Shown here piece after piece: positions 2,336-32,309 of a stretch of 34,776 nt of DNA. Position 1 is the first letter of the stretch, and each line of letters begins with the position of its first letter. This stretch comes from a virus (Duplodnaviria > Heunggongvirae > Uroviricota > Caudoviricetes). The notes under the pieces were generated by a model that searched no databases, was not told where the DNA came from, and saw only the letters and a program-made list of their open reading frames with translations. A program made the position numbers and the translations under genes. The DNA lies in IMG/VR virus record IMGVR_UViG_3300028991_000022, one strand, 5' to 3'.

Positions 2336-5300
2336 TATGCAAGCCTCACAATATAGTTAAATGCGATGTTTTTGACGGTGTTTTCCGCGTTACCAGCAGC
2401 GTTAACGGTGATGGTGTGTCCATGTGAACCAATCGCAACGGAGTGCGTATGAGCACCAATACCGACAGTATGCGCGTGTGCACCTGCAGATGCTGCTGTG
2501 CCGGACAGTGAATGGCTATGATTACCATCTGTACTGGTATTCGCTAACCACCCCGTAGACATACCTACTGAGCCTTGTACACCCCAGGTATTTTGACCTG
2601 AGCTTGTATAACCATATTGATAAGTATCTTTAAAAACACTGGGGTTAAATCGACGGCCATCTCTATGGCTGTGATTACCAGCTGCATTCGTGCTGCCACT
2701 TAAACTATGGGTATGCGCACCAGTGTTATTCGTGGATTTAGTGCCGTAATCAAACGACGATGTGGTTTTCGTCCCCAAATCCGTACTGGATGCGCTGGCG
2801 CTGTGGGTATGCGATTTAATGCCATCCTGTTCCTGAGACAATACGGCACGACCACTGGCGGGCTTGCCCTTAATCGTCCAGCCACGCAAATCAGGGATCA
2901 CGCCTGACGGATAAGCGGCAGCAAGTTTCGGGTAGGCAGATTTGTCAAAAGTCTGCCCCTGCATCAGGGCATAACCAGACGGAACGGTATCTGATGGCCA
3001 CGGGATTGGTGCGCCGACTGGGTAGCTTTCTGGTGGAAGATTTTTCGAGGTATAAACTTCTGCCCAGTCTTCCTCAAAACCATAGCCATCTCTTGAAGAA
3101 CGGTAGAACAGACCACCATTTCTGTAATGCGCCTTCATCTGCAGGGTCCGGCAACTTCCGACTCCGGTATAGAAGTTAACCAGAATATAGCTGTCGCCAG
3201 AGCGGGTGACATTGTAAGCGCCTGATTCGGCATTCCAGGGAACGCCACCATCCGCATCGGCATATGTATCCGTTGCCCTTCTGGCAAAAGCAGCCACATG
3301 CGCGGCGGTTAAAGTAATATCTTTGGAACCATCAAACTCAACACCAGAAACCAGTCTTGGCGTTTGCAGCTTTGTTGCTGTTAATGCATTACCGTTCAGA
3401 CTTGCGGACAGTTTGGTTCCAATAACCAGTTCGCCGGTTGCGTTATCAATAGCAAACGGTCTTAATGTATTCCAGCCACCATAAACATCACCTTGATTGG
3501 TAAGCAGCAGGTAAGTTTTAGCGCCATCATTACGCCATAATGCCCCATACTCCCCACCTATCATTCGAATCTGATTACCACCACGCGCTACAATTTCGTC
3601 TGTGGCAAAAAGTTTTTTGCACGACAAGTTATCGTTAACGATTAACGAATGAGACTCATAAAAACCACGCCCACTCTTAAAATCAAGGATAACGTCCGCC
3701 GCGATACATTCAGTCGCCGGATTTGTTGCCCCAAACTTATAGGTCGTATCATTAACAACGAGATCAGCACCAGGTGCGGATATTGACAGGCCATCTTCGA
3801 TAAACGCAAAAACAGGGAAAGCAGCGCCATCAACATAGAACACAGAGCGCAAATCATCGCCCTTATTACTCATCATTATTGAGTGGATGGCTCGTTCATT
3901 GTTTTGATATTGCCAGAACATTCCATAAGCATAACGCCCCCTGTCAGTCCAGCCACCAGGCATAACAAATCCGTTAAACTCGCAGTTATTCATCGGATCG
4001 CCTGCGGTTCGCGTTGCCGTGGTGATAATGACCCTTGATGCCAGTTCGCTTACTGAGCCAGCAGAACGCATAACAACAACAGGGTAATATTTTCCAGATA
4101 TTGCACCTGCAGGAGCGTTAACCCGCACATAACGCATACCACGCTTATCAGCAAAGTCTGTTTTACTGACCGCGTTAATGTTGTTCAGGAAGCGTCCCTT
4201 ATCGGGTATATCAGCGCCGTTCTGGTCTTTCTGCAGACGTTTCTCTGCATTGTCATAGGCTGATTTTACTGCCTTTGGCGTTGCCGCCAGCGTTTCAGAC
4301 GAACTGTTGGTCGCACTGCTGAGCTGTACTATCCCCTTTTTCGTCGTACTTGCATCCTCAAGCGCCACGGCGGATGCAATATCCTCTGCCCGTTTAGCTG
4401 CTGTCTCGGCGCGCGTTGCTGCGGATTCTGCCGTATTCTTGCTCTGTGCTGCCGCCGTCGCACTGCCAGCAGCCTCTGTTGCCTTCGTGGATGCCGTCGT
4501 GGCGCTGCCTTTCGCTGCTGATGCCTGTCTGGTCGCCTCATCTTTTGAAGCAGACGCCGATGAGGCCGATGACGCCGCCGAACTGGCGGACGATGCGGCA
4601 GCCGTTTTTGAGGATTCTGCGCTGGTTTCCGACGCTTTCGCGTTCGTTTCGGATGTCTTCGCTGCGGAAGCTGACCTCGCTGCTGCGTTGGCCTGTTCAG
4701 TGGCTTCGCCAGCCTTCGTTGTGGCTGTTGAAGCAGACGATGCGGCACTTTCTGCCGATTTTCCGGCGGCGGTGGCACTGGCTGAGGCCTGCCCGGCACT
4801 TGTTGACGCGGTACTGGCAGACGACGCAGCCGCTGTTTTTGAGCCTGCCGCAGCTGAGGCGCTCTGTCCCGCTGCCGTCTCAGAAGACCTGGCGTTCGCC
4901 TCGGACGTTTTTGCCGCCTTCGCGGAATTTCCTGCCGCCGTTGCCGAGGAAGCGGCACTACTGGCGCTCGAGGATGCGTTCGTTTCTGATGATTTCGCTG
5001 CCTCTTTTGAGGCCGCCGCATCCCGGGCTGAGGTGGCAGCTTCTGACGCTTTCGTGGTCGCGGTGGATGCAGAAGTGGCTGCTGATTGTTGTGACGCTGC
5101 GGCATTCGTTTCTGACGTTTTCGCCGCACCGGCACTGGTAGCCGCCGCGCTTTTTGAGGACTCTGCTGCGGCAGCACTTTTTGATGCTTCAGTAGCCTTT
5201 GTTGATGCCGTTCCTGCGCTGGAAGACGCTGACTGAGCCGACGTCGCGGCCTGCCCGGCTGATGTGCTGGCTGCACGTGCTGAGCCTGCAGCATCAGTCG

Positions 5301-25881: not shown

Positions 25882-26055
25882 CTAGATTAAATCAATCTTG
25901 ATATCATAGCTTTCAAGACCAGTCATTTTTTCCCGTGCAGTAAACTGGATACTGGTAACTTCTTTCCCGGTCTTTTTCTTAAGCTCAATGATTTTTTTTG
26001 TTATATATTCAGAAATATCTGCTTCTGTTTTTGTTTTTAACTCTTCAATGTTCAT
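25882..26055 (-). CDS. gnsB: GnsA/GnsB family protein
   Basis: 57 aa from the second Met: MNIEELKTKTEADISEYITKKIIELKKKTGKEVTSIQFTAREKMTGLESYDIKIDLI, closely matching the K-12 GnsA/GnsB pattern (MNIEELKK...FTAREKMTGLESYDVKI). Confidence 0.8.
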   Translation of the reverse strand: MNIEELKTKTEADISEYITKKIIELKKKTGKEVTSIQFTAREKMTGLESYDIKIDLI

Positions 26056-26227
26056 CATTTCCTCTTTTAGTCTGTTATGACTGTCCTGGTACACAGTAGT
26101 GTCAATTATATGGAGCAAACGTATAAAAGATAAGATGAAACATCGCAATAATCAACATACGACGGTCTAAATTTCACACAAACAGATAAAGATGATTATC
26201 ATTTATTATCAATGCATTAGAATCAAA

Positions 26228-26419
26228 TCAATTCAAGAGTCTCATTGCTGCTTCCAGAATTTCTTCTGAAGTTACATGTCGATCCGCTGCTACATAAATG
26301 ACTTTATGATCTCCGGTCAGAGATGGAAACCCTGCAGCCATTACAGTGAGGTGTGTTGTTTCGCCATTTGGATATTCACGCATGATGGTGTTAACTCCGG
26401 TCATCACTGGCACTACCAT
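26228..26419 (-). CDS. Hypothetical small protein (63 aa); occupies the position of ynfN in Qin-type prophages
   Basis: ORF MVVPVMTGVNTIMREYPNGETTHLTVMAAGFPSLTGDHKV...; identity not recognised, positional inference only. Confidence 0.4.
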   Translation of the reverse strand: MVVPVMTGVNTIMREYPNGETTHLTVMAAGFPSLTGDHKVIYVAADRHVTSEEILEAAMRLLN

Positions 26420-26728: not shown

Positions 26729-26941
26729 TCAAAGTGCCACTACATGAACAGCTGCAGGGCCTTTAGGTCCGTTCTCAATACCAAATTCGACTTCCTGATT
26801 CTCAGTTAACGTTTTGAAATCGTTGCTCTGAATAGCTGAGAAATGCACAAACACATCTTTGCTACCATCTTTCGGCGTGATGAAACCAAAACCTTTTTCA
26901 GGGTTAAACCATTTCACTAAACCAGTCATTTTGTTAGACAT
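26729..26941 (-). CDS. cspI: Cold shock protein, CspA family (CspI/CspB-like)
   Basis: [70 protein letters not shown]; RNP1-like KGFGFI and RNP2-like VFVHF motifs; long AT-rich leader upstream (26945-27300), typical of csp genes. Confidence 0.9.
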
Positions 26942-27305
26942 CATTATTACCTTTTGAAGAAGTTAGCCCTTGGGCAGAATGGTCCGAAAAAAAAATATCA
27001 GAGAGAAAAACCAACAAGGAAATCTCAAGAGGTACAAATAATAAAATTATAACAATGACTGCTTCAGATAATTTTGTAACAAACCAGAACACCATTAACG
27101 CATGATTAACCAACCATAGCAAGGATTACTTTTGTAAAGAAAAACACACGAATGAAACAATAGCTTTATTTATTAATAAAACGTGTCATTCTGTCTAATG
27201 ACCTTTTATCTTACCCTTAAGATTTCAAGGATTTTGACTCATGGAAGAGTCCTTTTTATTTAAATTTCACATTCAGCGCTAAAAATAATCCGATTTAATA
27301 TTAAT

Positions 27306-28329
<1,024 letters not shown>

Positions 28330-28333
<4 letters not shown>

Positions 28334-28641
28334 AGATATTTATGATGAGGACGCTCGTGCTTATTGGCAGGATTTTCAATCTTAAAGGAGTACTGATGCT
28401 GCAGATAAGACTCAACTTTTTCTGACAATTTTTCTGCTACTTCCAGGAAGACTTGCCGGACGCTCATTCTGGCTGCTGCCTCATAAAACTCCAGCGCAGC
28501 TCCTTCAACACGGTCCATGGCGACATCCAGGCCAAAAATTTCACCGTCAAAGCGTTCTTTGTCCTGTAAGGCTACAGTTACCGTAACTTTATTCTCAAAA
28601 TTACGGACTCCTTTCACAACCAGTTCATAGTCTTGAGTCAT
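28330..28641 (-). CDS. ydfR: DUF1327 family protein (YdfR-like), between holin and endolysin
   Basis: 103-aa ORF; same size and position as ydfR of the K-12 Qin prophage (between essQ and the lysozyme gene). Identified from memory of family and context. Confidence 0.6.
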
Positions 28642-28645
28642 TGGA

Positions 28646-28861
28646 TTACTCTCCTCTCGCAGCCTTACGCCTGTCTTCTTTAATCTTGAAATAAAGATTT
28701 GTCAGGTACGTCAGCAGGCCAAATACCAGGCTACCCAGCACACCTATTGCTGCCCACTGTGAGGGCGTGACTTTATCGAGCAGCTGTAAAAACCAGTAGC
28801 CAGCACTGCCTGCGGAGGTGCCGTAGGCAATGCCTGTTGAAATTTTGTCCATGGATTTCAT
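28646..28861 (-). CDS. S: Pinholin, phage 21 S-type, with dual start (antiholin S71 / holin S68)
   Basis: From ATG 28859-28861: [71 protein letters not shown]. The MKSM dual-start motif and two transmembrane segments match phage 21 S21; strong SD GGAGGTG upstream. Confidence 0.9.
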
Positions 28862-28964
28862 AGCCTCACCTCCGCACGGAACGGATGGCATAGTTATTAT
28901 GTGTAGGCTTCCAGACACATCAATCAGAGCCTTAATTGATATATATGCTGGAGACGATGCAATA

Positions 28965-28987
28965 TAAAAAGCTCGCCGTAGCGAGCT
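28965..28987 (-). terminator. Rho-independent terminator between the TolA-like lipoprotein genes and the holin gene
   Basis: Minus strand reads AGCTCGC-TACG-GCGAGCT followed by TTTTTATATTG; 7-bp perfect stem. Confidence 0.6.
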
Positions 28988-29112
28988 AATAAAATGTATT
29001 TCTCTGATATTATGTTTATTTGTATTAGCTCAGACTTGACATCACAGGTTTCGTATATAGAACATCATCAAATCTGTCAGTTTGCTATGAATGAGATATA
29101 GTAATTGAAGAG

Positions 29113-29508
29113 CTAACCTCGCATGTCAAAGCCAGATTTCTGAAAATCTCTGTAGACTTCCGGATTGTTGAAGGCCGGAAATTTGGCTTTATGAGCTGCG
29201 GACTTTATCGCTTCGCAATAGGCTTTATCACCGTTACTGGTAGATATTTTTAACGCCGTGCCATCCTGAGAGAATTCCATATGCAACCTGCATTTTTTCC
29301 CTTTCCAGTTATGCGGCTCATCAAGTTTGGCATTAATTGCAGCTCTGATTCCCCGCGCTTGCGCCCCCCATTCATCCTGATCATCCCAGCGTCCTGAACT
29401 GCAACTACCTGTAGCAGTAGTTTTGTGGCAATCTGAAGGGTGTAAAGGTGTGCATCCCGCAACAAAACCGACCCAAAAAGTCAACATAACGATTTTCTTT
29501 AATCCCAC
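29113..29508 (-). CDS. Lipoprotein with diverged TolA C-terminal domain (TolAIII)-like fold, copy A
   Basis: 131-aa ORF with signal peptide plus lipobox (MGLKKIVMLTFWVGFVAGC, +2 residue Thr). C-terminal KGKKCRLHMEFSQDGTALKISTSNGDKAYCEAIKSAAHKAKFPAFNNPEVYRDFQ parallels the second copy and TolA domain III (two conserved Cys, PxxxxEVY). Confidence 0.65.
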   Translation of the reverse strand: MGLKKIVMLTFWVGFVAGCTPLHPSDCHKTTATGSCSSGRWDDQDEWGAQARGIRAAINAKLDEPHNWKGKKCRLHMEFSQDGTALKISTSNGDKAYCEAIKSAAHKAKFPAFNNPEVYRDFQKSGFDMRG

Positions 29509-29658
29509 TTCTTGCTCCTCAATCCATTAAAATCTCAGCAATAGTAGTTGTTACGTCCGCCACTGGCTCAGAGCTGACTATCCGCTAAATTTAGCTCAGT
29601 GCCGTAGTTGTGTCAGAACAAACCTAAGCCGAAACCGTTTATTACAAAACAATAAATA

Positions 29659-30087
29659 TCAGGGTTTAAAATCCAGCACCCCATTTTGAAATACTTTATA
29701 TACTTCCGGCGAAGGGGGGGCAGGTATATCAGCATTCTTTATCGCATTCATCGCTTCACGACATAAATCGAGGTCTCCACTTTCTCTTTTAACCTCCAGT
29801 AGAAGGCCATTCGGGGCCATATGCATTCTCAGTGTACACTCTTTTCCTGAATACTTACTCGCATCCCCGAACTGTTTTTCGATGGCGCTCTTGATTTGAT
29901 GGGCATACAGACGGATATCCTCACTAACATCAGAAGTACGTTCAGATGAACTCACATACTGTGTCTCTATTGCTTTATCGGAGTAATATGATGTACGGTC
30001 ATGATAATTTGTCGATACAGCATCAGTGCACCCGATAATAATCCCACTAATAATCAACGTAAGAATTGATGCGCTACGAAAACCCAT
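29659..30087 (-). CDS. Lipoprotein with TolA C-terminal domain (TolAIII)-like domain, copy B
   Basis: 142-aa ORF with lipobox (MGFRSASILTLIISGIIIGC, +2 Thr). C-terminus YAHQIKSAIEKQFGDASKYSGKECTLRMHMAPNGLLLEVKRESGDLDLCREAMNAIKNADIPAPPSPEVYKVFQNGVLDFKP closely parallels the E. coli TolA C-terminus as I recall it (YAGQIKSAIESKFYDASSYAGKTCTLRIKLAPDGMLLDIKPEGGDPALCQAALAAAKLAKIPKPPSQAVYEVFKNAPLDFKP). Confidence 0.8.
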   Translation of the reverse strand: MGFRSASILTLIISGIIIGCTDAVSTNYHDRTSYYSDKAIETQYVSSSERTSDVSEDIRLYAHQIKSAIEKQFGDASKYSGKECTLRMHMAPNGLLLEVKRESGDLDLCREAMNAIKNADIPAPPSPEVYKVFQNGVLDFKP

Positions 30088-30620
30088 TTTTCCTCACATA
30101 TGTCATATAGTAAAGAATTATATATACCGTTGTTTTGGACGCTCAAACAGCGAATCAGATCAAATAAAACGCACATTTGTTAACATTTACACAAAGTCTG
30201 CGTGGGATATTCTGAAAGAATATCCATAATGTGGAGAGAATCTATTGAAGTGCATGGTGCCGGGTGCCTCCCGGTGAATTCAGTACCAGCACCTGAATCC
30301 GCGATTATCCCATATACCTACTCGCTGATTGCCCCTCCGCACAGGGGGATTCACCATGCCAGTTTCTTTTAACAAACTCCCCGCAAACCAGAGAACAGTC
30401 AACCGCCTGAATTGTGAAGTATTTAAAAATTTCTCCCGCTAACTGATACCCGGCTAACAGTCTGGCGTTTTCTTTTTCAGCAACGGGAAAGCAACAACCA
30501 CCACACCCGCCACCAGCACACTGTCAGCCAGCACTGACATTATCCGGCTGCTGCAATGCCATTCACAAAAACAGTAAGCAATCACTTTTTACCGTAACAG
30601 GTGATAATCCAGATATGTAT

Positions 30621-31084: not shown

Positions 31085-31161
31085 TGGCGCGCTGTACTGG
31101 ATTCGAACCAGTGACCGATTGCTTAGAAGGCAATTGCTCTGTCCGGCTGAGCTAACAACGC
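31085..31161 (-). tRNA. tRNA-Arg (anticodon UCU)
   Basis: 77-nt minus-strand sequence GCGTTGTTAGCTCAGCCGGACAGAGCAATTGCCTTCTAAGCAATCGGTCACTGGTTCGAATCCAGTACAGCGCGCCA; cloverleaf with anticodon loop CTTCTAA (UCU), T-arm GGTTCGAATCC and encoded CCA. Confidence 0.9.
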
Positions 31162-31229: not shown

Positions 31230-31270
31230 NNNNNNNNNNNNNNNNNNNNNNNNNNNNNNNNNNNNNNNNN
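31230..31270. other. Assembly gap (41 N)
   Basis: Run of n characters; removes the 3' CCA end of the adjacent tRNA and may hide a further tRNA. Confidence 0.95.
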
Positions 31271-31344
31271 GTGGCCCTTGCTGGATTTGAACCAGCGACC
31301 TGGCGATTATGAGTCGCTCGCTCTCACCACTGAGCTAAAGGGCC
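31271..31344 (-). tRNA. tRNA-Ile2-like (anticodon CAU, lysidine-type) or tRNA-Met; 3' end truncated by the gap
   Basis: Minus strand GGCCCTTTAGCTCAGTGGTGAGAGCGAGCGACTCATAATCGCCAGGTCGCTGGTTCAAATCCAGCAAGGGCCAC; anticodon loop CTCATAA; closely resembles E. coli ileX-type tRNA as recalled. Confidence 0.85.
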
Positions 31345-31383: not shown

Positions 31384-31412
31384 AAAAAACCCGCTCGGCG
31401 GCGGGTTGTAGA
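31384..31412 (-). terminator. tR'-like rho-independent terminator downstream of the late promoter
   Basis: Minus strand reads AACCCGC-CGCCGA-GCGGGTT followed by TTTTATT; about 45-60 nt downstream of the predicted pR' start site. Confidence 0.7.
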
Positions 31413-31487: not shown

Positions 31488-32309
31488 TTACCTAGTTACC
31501 TTTTTTAACTGCCGCTCAGCCCATGCTTCTTCAATATCAAACCGGGTCACCAGCGCATCATAGAATTTCTTAACTGTTTTTTCCCATGACGCGCGTGTTA
31601 TCTGGTTTGTCACCTCGCATATAGCATTAAATGCCTCCGTTGATGGTAGTCTTTCATAGCCACGACCACCACAACGCTGGCAGTCTCTGATAACAGGCAT
31701 ACCACGTTTTACCGACTCTTCACGGTGAATGGCGACACCACGCCCACGGCAATCCTTACAGGCGGTGGAAACCTCACCCTTTCCGCCACACTCCGGACAG
31801 GCAACTTTTACCACCTCCCTGACTTTTTTCCATTCTTCCCAGTAAGACGGATACACACCTTTCGTACACTTTGCCCATACCGGCGGCTTACCATCCGGAT
31901 ACTGGACCTTGTTTGTAAAAACTATGCTTTCAATAAATTTTTCCCCATAGCAACAAGGGCACTGCTTTTTACTCGCTGCGCTGCGGGCATAATCCTCAAA
32001 AGCGTACGAAGCCATAATGCGCATCACTACCGGTTTTATTTCTGCCGGAAGTTTTCTCAACGCCGCCACACGATCGCACCGACTGAGTGCATAATCTGCC
32101 AGTAATTCTGTTGCCCGCGCCCTGTCATTCATACTGATGCCCATTTTCCCCAGGAACGCAGAAAAACCCATCTCAGCCCGATTCTGTGTCATGCCCTGCG
32201 CGGCCATCACATCAGTGATACTCAGCGCATCTTTTGACGTTGAGGCCGATGCATCGGTCAGGCCAGGGGATTTTGGGGAGTAGTATTTCGGTAAATCTTC
32301 CAGTTTCAT
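31488..32309 (-). CDS. Q: Late gene antiterminator Q
   Basis: 273-aa ORF directly upstream of the pR'-like promoter; Cys-rich repeats CPECGGKG, CKDCRGRG and CQRCGGRG (CxxCxGxG zinc-finger type) plus CPCC; preceded by rusA as in lambdoid nin/Q regions. Confidence 0.85.
   Translation of the reverse strand: MKLEDLPKYYSPKSPGLTDASASTSKDALSITDVMAAQGMTQNRAEMGFSAFLGKMGISMNDRARATELLADYALSRCDRVAALRKLPAEIKPVVMRIMASYAFEDYARSAASKKQCPCCYGEKFIESIVFTNKVQYPDGKPPVWAKCTKGVYPSYWEEWKKVREVVKVACPECGGKGEVSTACKDCRGRGVAIHREESVKRGMPVIRDCQRCGGRGYERLPSTEAFNAICEVTNQITRASWEKTVKKFYDALVTRFDIEEAWAERQLKKVTR

Follow-up and report, generated by a model that had tools for sequence, protein, structure and literature searches.

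The C-terminal domain III of the Escherichia coli envelope protein TolA (TolAIII) is a hub whose β3 strand is bound by g3p-N1 of filamentous phages, by colicin N (ColN), and by the N-terminus of TolB (PMC7391070), while colicin A (ColA) binds strand β2 on the opposite face, with ColA residues 53-107 binding at 1.3 µM (PMC3365938). ColN, g3p, and TolB share one site, with affinities of about 1 µM for ColN and about 40 µM for TolB, and the substitutions D418P and K420P abolish the binding of ColN, g3p-N1, and TolB (PMC4339652). Periplasmic g3p-N1 is known to sequester TolA, blocking the uptake of colicin A and of phage (PMC10424213). Here we describe two genes of a lambdoid prophage that encode free-standing versions of this domain. 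The DNA analysed, a stretch of 34,776 nucleotides from a virus of the Caudoviricetes (IMG/VR record IMGVR_UViG_3300028991_000022; hereafter the window), carries on its minus strand the adjacent genes termed copy B (29659-30087, 142 amino acids) and copy A (29113-29508, 131 amino acids), both present where a preliminary description, made from the sequence alone, had placed them. Each encodes a predicted outer-membrane lipoprotein ending in a TolAIII domain. We propose, at somewhat less than an even chance, that A and B are outer-membrane-tethered decoys uncoupled from TolQR which would confer tolerance to Tol-dependent colicins and/or filamentous phages.

The homology to TolA domain III claimed in the preliminary description was confirmed by Pfam, by phmmer, and by superposition of the folds. 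Against PF06519 (cut-off 25 bits), copy B scored 82.6 bits (E 2e-23) and copy A 54.6 bits (E 1e-14), and phmmer comparison with the TolAIII chains in the PDB gave E-values of 5e-28 for B and 5e-9 for A. In AlphaFold models of both proteins, the predicted local distance difference test score (pLDDT) exceeded 90 across the domain and fell below 50 for the linker. Comparison of the two predicted domains with solved TolAIII structures, which had been suggested as a check, supported the assignment in both cases. The best Foldseek match of B was 2x9a_B, E. coli TolAIII in complex with the g3p of IF1, with a template modelling (TM) score of 0.94, a root-mean-square deviation (rmsd) of 0.6 Å, and 60% identity, and A matched 3qdp with a TM score of 0.89, an rmsd of 1.1 Å, and 32% identity. 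The top matches were solved E. coli TolAIII structures, and TonB C-terminal domains matched weakly. Over 88 domain residues, B is identical to TolA (residues 334-421) at 52 positions (59%), A to TolA at 27 (31%), and A to B at 25 (28%); the Cys pair equivalent to C363 and C388 of TolA was invariant in all 25 aligned sequences. Alignment with TolA also bore out the DFKP terminus reported for copy B, which ends ...GVLDFKP where TolA ends ...APLDFKP.

A and B are not TolA proteins. Nothing in either aligns to TolA residues 1-47, the N-terminal transmembrane helix of domain I, and a lipoprotein signal peptide is found instead; the Ala/Lys/Glu-rich helical domain II is absent from both, its place being taken by a low-confidence linker of 20-33 residues. 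The ybgC-tolQRA-tolB-pal-cpoB operon is not at the locus, which is a prophage late region. Both proteins fall below the threshold of NF007065 (cut-off 213; B 107.8, A 53.7). B passes TIGR02794 (cut-off 59.45) at 75.6 through its C-terminal 97 residues alone, and it is because this domain suffices that its RefSeq twin, WP_000506936.1, is named 'tolA: cell envelope integrity protein TolA'; the twin of A is WP_001348108.1. The homology as such is not new, as RefSeq already calls both genes TolA C-terminal domain proteins, with B misnamed 'tolA', a name that can mislead automated analyses.

In both N-termini a short n-region with positive charge precedes a hydrophobic core, and a lipobox of the form [LVI][ASTVI][GAS]C comes next; the lipoboxes, with Thr at position +2, are as had been claimed from the sequence. 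Copy B reads MGFRSASILTLIISGIIIG-C20-TD (lipobox IIGC, R4 in the n-region) and copy A MGLKKIVMLTFWVGFVAG-C19-TP (lipobox VAGC, K4 and K5 in the n-region). The lipobox Cys is retained in essentially all full-length homologues of the A and B types, which number in the hundreds, and the +2 residue of the orthologues is Ala, Ser, Thr, or Gly, and never Asp. Since a +2 residue other than Asp implies outer-membrane sorting in E. coli, A and B are predicted to be outer-membrane lipoproteins. The ATG of copy B lies five bases after GAGGA and the GTG of copy A six bases after GAGGAG. The RefSeq/PGAP start of copy A is seven codons downstream, with loss of the charged n-region; we kept the 131-residue reading because of the Shine-Dalgarno sequence GAGGAG of copy A and because the homologue on plasmid pO157 has an ATG at the position where copy A has GTG.

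Copy B has a disordered linker at residues 21-53, followed by TolA domain III at residues 54-142 with the C-terminal LDFKP. In copy A the domain spans approximately residues 41-131 and is preceded by a Cys-containing linker with the conserved motif SSGRWDDQDEWG. The linker of the A family (approximately residues 20-45) is unusually conserved, with the pattern C-x-PLHPS-x-C-HKTTATGSC-SSGRWDDQDEWG comprising two extra Cys and an acidic, Trp-rich motif. That motif was considered as a mimic of the TolB box and rejected: compared with DG(S/T)GWSSE and GASDGSGWSSENNPW (PMC2821528), it is without the critical Asp, the Ser/Thr, and the SSE, and its Trp-Trp spacing differs.

At L417-D418-F419-K420-P421 the β3 strand of B matches TolA residue for residue. 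Of the three cation-π lysines of the ColA site, B retains K379 and K396 and has His for K368, and its β2 strand is conservatively substituted, with LLEVKR for LLDIKP. Because the β3 docking strand and most of the β2 edge are kept, B should capture TolAIII ligands, and we suggest that it would do so by β-strand augmentation near the point at which Tol-dependent invaders enter. Such capture would be non-productive, and import would stall, because B is missing domains I and II and has no link to the TolQR motor with which to energise import. A moderate dose of decoy may protect without collapse of the Tol-Pal system, since the affinities for ColN and TolB given above would cause invaders to be titrated more than TolB. 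Copy A would belong to a much older, strongly conserved family and, because the known β3 and ColA-site motifs are lost, probably binds another β-strand ligand, which would widen the spectrum. The beneficiary would be the lysogen, or for the homologues the plasmid host, which would tolerate Tol-dependent bacteriocins and/or filamentous phages specific for pili. Filamentous phages that depend on TolA attack hosts that bear pili. As to expression, a sigma-70 promoter-like site (TTGAGC, 18 nt, TATAAT; 30117-30146, minus strand) about 30 nt upstream of copy B was the top match in a 3-kb scan, agreeing with the consensus at 10 of 12 positions, and as a consensus match only is a candidate promoter for expression in the lysogen. 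Judging by position only, Q-dependent late transcription may add a burst of expression on induction.

The retention of D418 and K420 in B can also be read in another way, as both are TolB-binding residues as well. A tethered TolAIII might bind the TolB N-terminus or CpoB, compete with TolA, lower Pal mobilisation, and loosen the outer membrane; this could lead to more vesicles, to easier lysis or release of late products, and, in chromosomal and plasmid hosts, to envelope tuning. The position of the genes directly upstream of the lysis cassette in the late operon accords with such a role, and laboratory overproduction of periplasmic TolAIII (Levengood-Freyermuth, Click, and Webster, 1993, J Bacteriol 175:222) reportedly rendered E. 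coli colicin-tolerant and leaky. Defects in tol-pal lead to hypervesiculation, and it has been suggested in a review that vesicle production may be regulated via TolB interactions (PMC7391070). We nevertheless consider modulation of Tol-Pal unlikely to be the main role of these proteins. The affinity of TolA for TolB is weak, a holin, an endolysin, and Rz/Rz1 are already encoded by the prophage, and the terminator and promoter-like site of the gene pair suggest expression independent of lysis. Moreover, chromosomal and plasmid homologues are carried constitutively at sites without neighbouring lysis genes, and there leakiness of the envelope would come at a cost.

The two genes are common. The pair, scored as present when at least 80% of a 1-kb query was matched, was found in 776 of 5426 complete E. 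coli genomes (about 14%), with a further 525 matches on plasmids, and the open reading frames (ORFs) were intact and 99.8-100% identical in every sampled record among the 776 genomes. The two families differ in breadth: that of B comprises 46 clusters at 90% identity, for which every source name given is E. coli or Shigella, and that of A comprises 370 clusters including Citrobacter, Enterobacter, Klebsiella, Raoultella, and Serratia. An A-type gene was present in 31 species-representative genomes, and A-type genes occur singly in the chromosomes of some 30 further species of Enterobacterales. In genera other than Escherichia/Shigella, there is a single copy of A, and B, Q, holin, and endolysin genes are all absent from its vicinity; in Enterobacter, Serratia fonticola, and Citrobacter amalonaticus its neighbours are ordinary genes of the chromosome. 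The commonest families in the 120 ORFs flanking A in 30 genomes were of kinds such as LysR regulators, GNAT acetyltransferases, and permeases rather than phage functions.

The preliminary description had regarded A and B as a paralogous pair that arose by duplication and diverged under selection, and on this point our data disagree. The genes are adjacent, co-oriented, and alike in architecture, PHROG 5772 matches both over their full length, and their full-length BLASTP identity is 29%. In the domain, however, A and B share fewer residues with each other than either shares with TolA (25 of 88 against 52 for B and 27 for A), and they do not group as sisters when 150 domains are placed in a neighbour-joining tree. 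Each gene also occurs alone elsewhere at 66-90% identity, and the homology between the A module and pO157 stops approximately 30 nt upstream of the A start codon, which marks A and B as separate modules. The ratio of nonsynonymous to synonymous substitution rates (dN/dS) in the domain of A was 0.05-0.09 and in that of B about 0.25; evolution is faster in the signal-plus-linker parts (about 0.4-0.5 in B), but values were below 1 in both parts of both genes in all comparisons. Both genes are therefore under purifying selection and are not visibly diversifying. Divergence in place of a tandem duplicate under diversifying selection is very improbable on these data, and the cassette is best described as two independently acquired modules stacked together.

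Recent capture of the host tolA gene as the source of B was rejected as well, as the in-frame alignment of B with E. coli tolA has 59% nucleotide identity and only 40% at third positions, synonymous sites are nearly saturated, and there was no significant blastn match. The same saturation leaves no room for a recent fragment of tolA. PGAP's name for B and the many truncated versions in databases might suggest decaying, functionless tolA fragments or an annotation artefact, but with intact ORFs throughout the sampled genomes, a conserved lipobox, purifying selection, and confidently predicted folds, we find this scarcely credible.

Free-standing TolAIII domains extend well beyond this prophage. 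An exhaustive HMMER search with B returned 333 representatives of 50%-identity clusters at E ≤ 0.001. Among the best 146 new representatives, 84 are at most 175 amino acids long, and at least 46 of these 84 have a lipobox, while others have ordinary signal peptides; many end in xLDFK[P/L], as enterobacterial TolA does. Short TolAIII-only lipoproteins make up a large family. In tblastn searches with B against 72,556 plasmids, 1307 records matched, of which 660 were from Klebsiella and 553 from Escherichia. A scan of IMG/VR gave near-identical copies of B only, and a BFVD fold search found no viral structure with the TolAIII fold at E ≤ 0.001.

Several of the plasmid relatives have informative neighbours. 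On a 10-kb CloDF13-like plasmid of Klebsiella pneumoniae (NZ_CP053877.1, 3877-4610), a lipoprotein-TolAIII gene (123 amino acids; lipobox LLLTAC, terminus APLDFRP, PF06519 E 2e-24) is immediately followed by a gene for a secreted TonB C-terminal domain (121 amino acids; signal peptide, PF03544 E 9e-11), and the pair adjoins a bacteriocin/immunity/lysis operon. Judged by their domains, the two proteins duplicate, in free form, the docking domains of the two machines that import colicins. CloDF13 itself was considered as a characterised precedent and rejected: the pair is absent from classical CloDF13, and the variant plasmid has been noted in passing with no function reported (PMC10269471). A-type genes with 87-88% nucleotide identity are found on pO157 (NZ_CP017670.1, 5003-5434), beside a truncated nikB, hok, psiA, and psiB, and directly downstream of a nikB-type relaxase gene on an IncI-γ/K1 conjugative plasmid (5815-6246); the pO157 gene persists as a remnant beside the truncated nikB. 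On a Klebsiella michiganensis plasmid (CP124763.1, 4890-5249), a gene for a secreted TolAIII-only protein with an ordinary signal peptide adjoins psiA in the leading region of a conjugative plasmid with an F-type pilus. Two 8-kb contigs of metagenome-assembled genomes, labelled Lachnospiraceae and Treponemataceae, carry a NikA/relaxase pair and an A-type gene 89% identical to copy A, and are probably mis-binned fragments of enterobacterial plasmids.

The breadth of this family is also what one would expect if these were envelope lipoproteins with some other ligand, the TolA/TonB-type domain serving as a generic β-strand-augmentation module, the benefit lying in host physiology, and carriage by a phage being incidental. 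The strong conservation of A (dN/dS 0.05-0.09), its stand-alone occurrence in varied chromosomal neighbourhoods of about 30 Enterobacterales species, its own conserved Cys-rich acidic linker in place of known TolA ligand motifs, and the occurrence of at least 46 distinct 50%-identity clusters of short lipobox TolAIII proteins all point in this direction. Such an explanation fits poorly with the close mimicry of E. coli TolAIII by B at known ligand sites, with the recurrence of the family on mobile elements tied to colicins and pili, and with the bacteriocin plasmid on which one member is paired with a secreted domain of the TonB C-terminal type, and overall we regard it as a minor possibility. 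The decoy reading is fitted, though not proven, by these same mobile-element contexts, namely the bacteriocin plasmid with TolA- and TonB-type domains and the pilus plasmids. With greater reserve than for A and B themselves, we suggest that mobile elements of Enterobacterales might carry a so far unrecognised class of 'import-hub decoys', that is, free-standing lipid-tethered or secreted docking domains of TolA and sometimes of TonB. Such decoys would intercept the translocation epitopes of bacteriocins and pilus-specific phages in the periplasm and so give a broad, receptor-independent tolerance, and the present prophage would stack two of them with different specificities.

Over the region, identity is 100% with a Qin-like lambdoid prophage that adjoins rspB/ynfA in E. 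coli GB089 and 99.9% with phage mEp460_ev081. The element is a Qin/mEp460-like lambdoid prophage with the cassette in its late operon, between Q/tRNAs and the holin. The whole cassette (28960-30250, minus strand, about 1.3 kb) is AT-rich, with a GC content of 0.409 versus 0.513 for the window, and has the layout of a moron: the promoter-like site, B, A, and an intrinsic-terminator-like hairpin that closes it (28970-28987, minus strand; AGCTCGC-TACG-GCGAGCT, then TTTTTAT). Its own terminator, its low GC content, and its presence or absence between related phages are all moron traits. The conserved late-region segment directly upstream (30251-30359, minus strand, 109 bp) recurs with 100% identity in Shigella phage 75/02 Stx, where it follows closely downstream of stx1B and precedes the gene for the nanS-p esterase. 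Stx phages and other lambdoid phages that are without the cassette have the 109-150 bp of flanking DNA in common with it, making the junction a presence/absence polymorphism. In other E. coli prophages a B variant of 66% identity lies alone between Q and nanS-p, exactly in the place of stx, and is followed by two strong terminators. Given the shared 109-bp flank and this variant, the stx-equivalent moron position assigned to the genes in the preliminary description is right as a description of the slot. In the Qin prophage of K-12, cspB/cspF are at the position of the cassette.

The E. coli gene EDL933_2012, 32-fold up with ciprofloxacin and given as 'TolA-type' in PMC11125564, was considered as transcriptome evidence and set aside, as table S1 calls it 'tail fiber protein'. 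RAST names the P21-type holin of mEp460_ev081 (3892-4107) 'Phage tail fiber protein', and it was this label on EDL933_2012 that led to its discussion as a TolA-type protein, so that the 32-fold induction is not assignable to a TolA-like gene.

On the minus strand, the genes follow the order Q, terminator-like site, two tRNAs, DUF3927 ORF, B, A, terminator, holin, DUF1327, endolysin, and Rz/Rz1. The Q-type late antiterminator (31488-32309; PF03589, E 6e-55; RefSeq twin locus) has just downstream of it a terminator-like site at the tR' position (31388-31407). The first tRNA (CAT anticodon, 31271-31344) abuts a masked run of 41 N (31230-31270) that separates it from tRNA-Arg(TCT) (31085-31161; ARAGORN and RefSeq twin context). 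ARAGORN calls the former tRNA-Met(CAT) and the RefSeq twin tRNA-Ile, a discrepancy that would fit a lysidine-modified tRNA of the ileX/ileZ type, as in Stx phages. Between the tRNAs and the cassette is a small DUF3927 ORF (30454-30585; Pfam E 6e-26). In phage JLK-2012 the homologue of this ORF carries the label 'TciB-like inhibition of cell division or resistance to colicin' and adjoins a gene labelled 'tciA tellurite resistance'. The lysis cassette (27306-28861) consists of the P21-type holin (28646-28861), a DUF1327/YdfR gene (28330-28641) between holin and endolysin, the endolysin (27800-28333), and Rz (27306-27803) with an embedded Rz1 lipoprotein ORF within 27356-27652. Further accessory genes lie downstream of Rz, namely a cspI-like cold-shock gene (26729-26944), ynfN (26228-26419), and gnsB (within 25882-26148). 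Small accessory genes are stacked in this late region.

A number of observations weigh against the proposal that A and B are decoys. Once tethered, a TolAIII domain would be expected to bind the N-terminus of TolB too, with possible harm to the cell. Copy A reads SGFDMRG at β3 and has lost all three ColA-site lysines, and its orthologues, from about 30 species, are chromosomal genes that stand alone and look ordinary, for which a housekeeping envelope role fits as well as defence. The promoter is a consensus match that is not conserved at the divergent B-variant locus, the upstream regions of B variants being not alignable, and expression in the lysogen is accordingly a prediction. PADLOC gave no match at E up to 0.1, and among 50,697 phage records tblastn with B matched mEp460_ev081 alone. 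The preliminary description was aware of no experimentally characterised function for such proteins, and our searches agree: we found no functional study of A or B in full-text searches of the literature, where mentions were limited to annotation lists and one Stutzerimonas stutzeri phage protein, and PHROG 5772 has the annotation 'unknown function'. The Stutzerimonas stutzeri phage protein is annotated TolA but is unrelated, and tblastn with B did not detect it.

The decoy function that we infer for A and B is a concrete hypothesis and cheap to test. Colicin tolerance and filamentous-phage resistance are usually credited to immunity proteins, receptor loss, or tol mutations, and a mobile TolAIII copy would be a fourth, receptor-independent route. 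If true, this would affect the prediction of colicin and phage sensitivity from genomes, would bear on colicin- or phage-based therapeutics, and would bear on why phages of the Ff/If1 type do not wipe out pilus-bearing plasmids. It would also provide Tol-Pal research with natural TolAIII variants that separate ligand binding from TolB binding. The frequency of the pair in E. coli, together with the relatives carried by pO157 and by hundreds of plasmids of Klebsiella and E. coli, adds to the relevance of these questions.

Compared with known systems, A and B share with E. coli TolAIII (1S62, 1TOL, 2X9A, 3QDP/3QDR) the fold (TM 0.89-0.94) and the two cysteines of the TolA disulfide, and in B also the LDFKP terminus. 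In contrast to E. coli TolA, they are without the transmembrane helix and domain II, have a lipid anchor in the opposite membrane, and are prophage-borne, and A is without the ligand-site residues. Periplasmic TolAIII made in the laboratory in 1993 as a dominant-negative tool was likewise a free domain uncoupled from the motor and reportedly gave colicin tolerance, in line with the decoy reading; those constructs were artificial, soluble, and overproduced and reportedly caused leakiness, whereas A and B are natural, lipid-tethered, diverged, and under purifying selection. The exclusion exerted by filamentous-phage pIII/g3p involves the same interface, but there the ligand of the invader saturates the receptor and here a copy of the receptor would saturate the ligand of the invader (PMC10424213). 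Among the cargo of the slot between Q and holin (stx1/stx2, nanS-p, and cspB/cspF of Qin), with which the cassette shares its flanks, low GC content, and terminator, A and B are neither toxin nor esterase. The tandem on the Klebsiella CloDF13-like plasmid has the same lipobox-linker-TolAIII architecture (terminus PLDFRP) and is likewise mobile, although its TolAIII protein has 39% identity to B and its partner is of the TonB rather than the TolA type. Cor (φ80/N15/mEp), Llp (T5), and TraT (F) are likewise small lipoproteins of mobile elements proposed to protect the carrier cell at its envelope, and the mEp phage collection, which includes the sole sequenced phage with the cassette, is known for cor. 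These proteins have no sequence or fold relation to A and B and inactivate an outer-membrane receptor (such as FhuA), whereas the target proposed here is a periplasmic ligand. A TolAIII decoy that is natural, mobile, and tethered by a lipid would be a novel form among the devices for exclusion and tolerance with which mobile elements act at the envelope.

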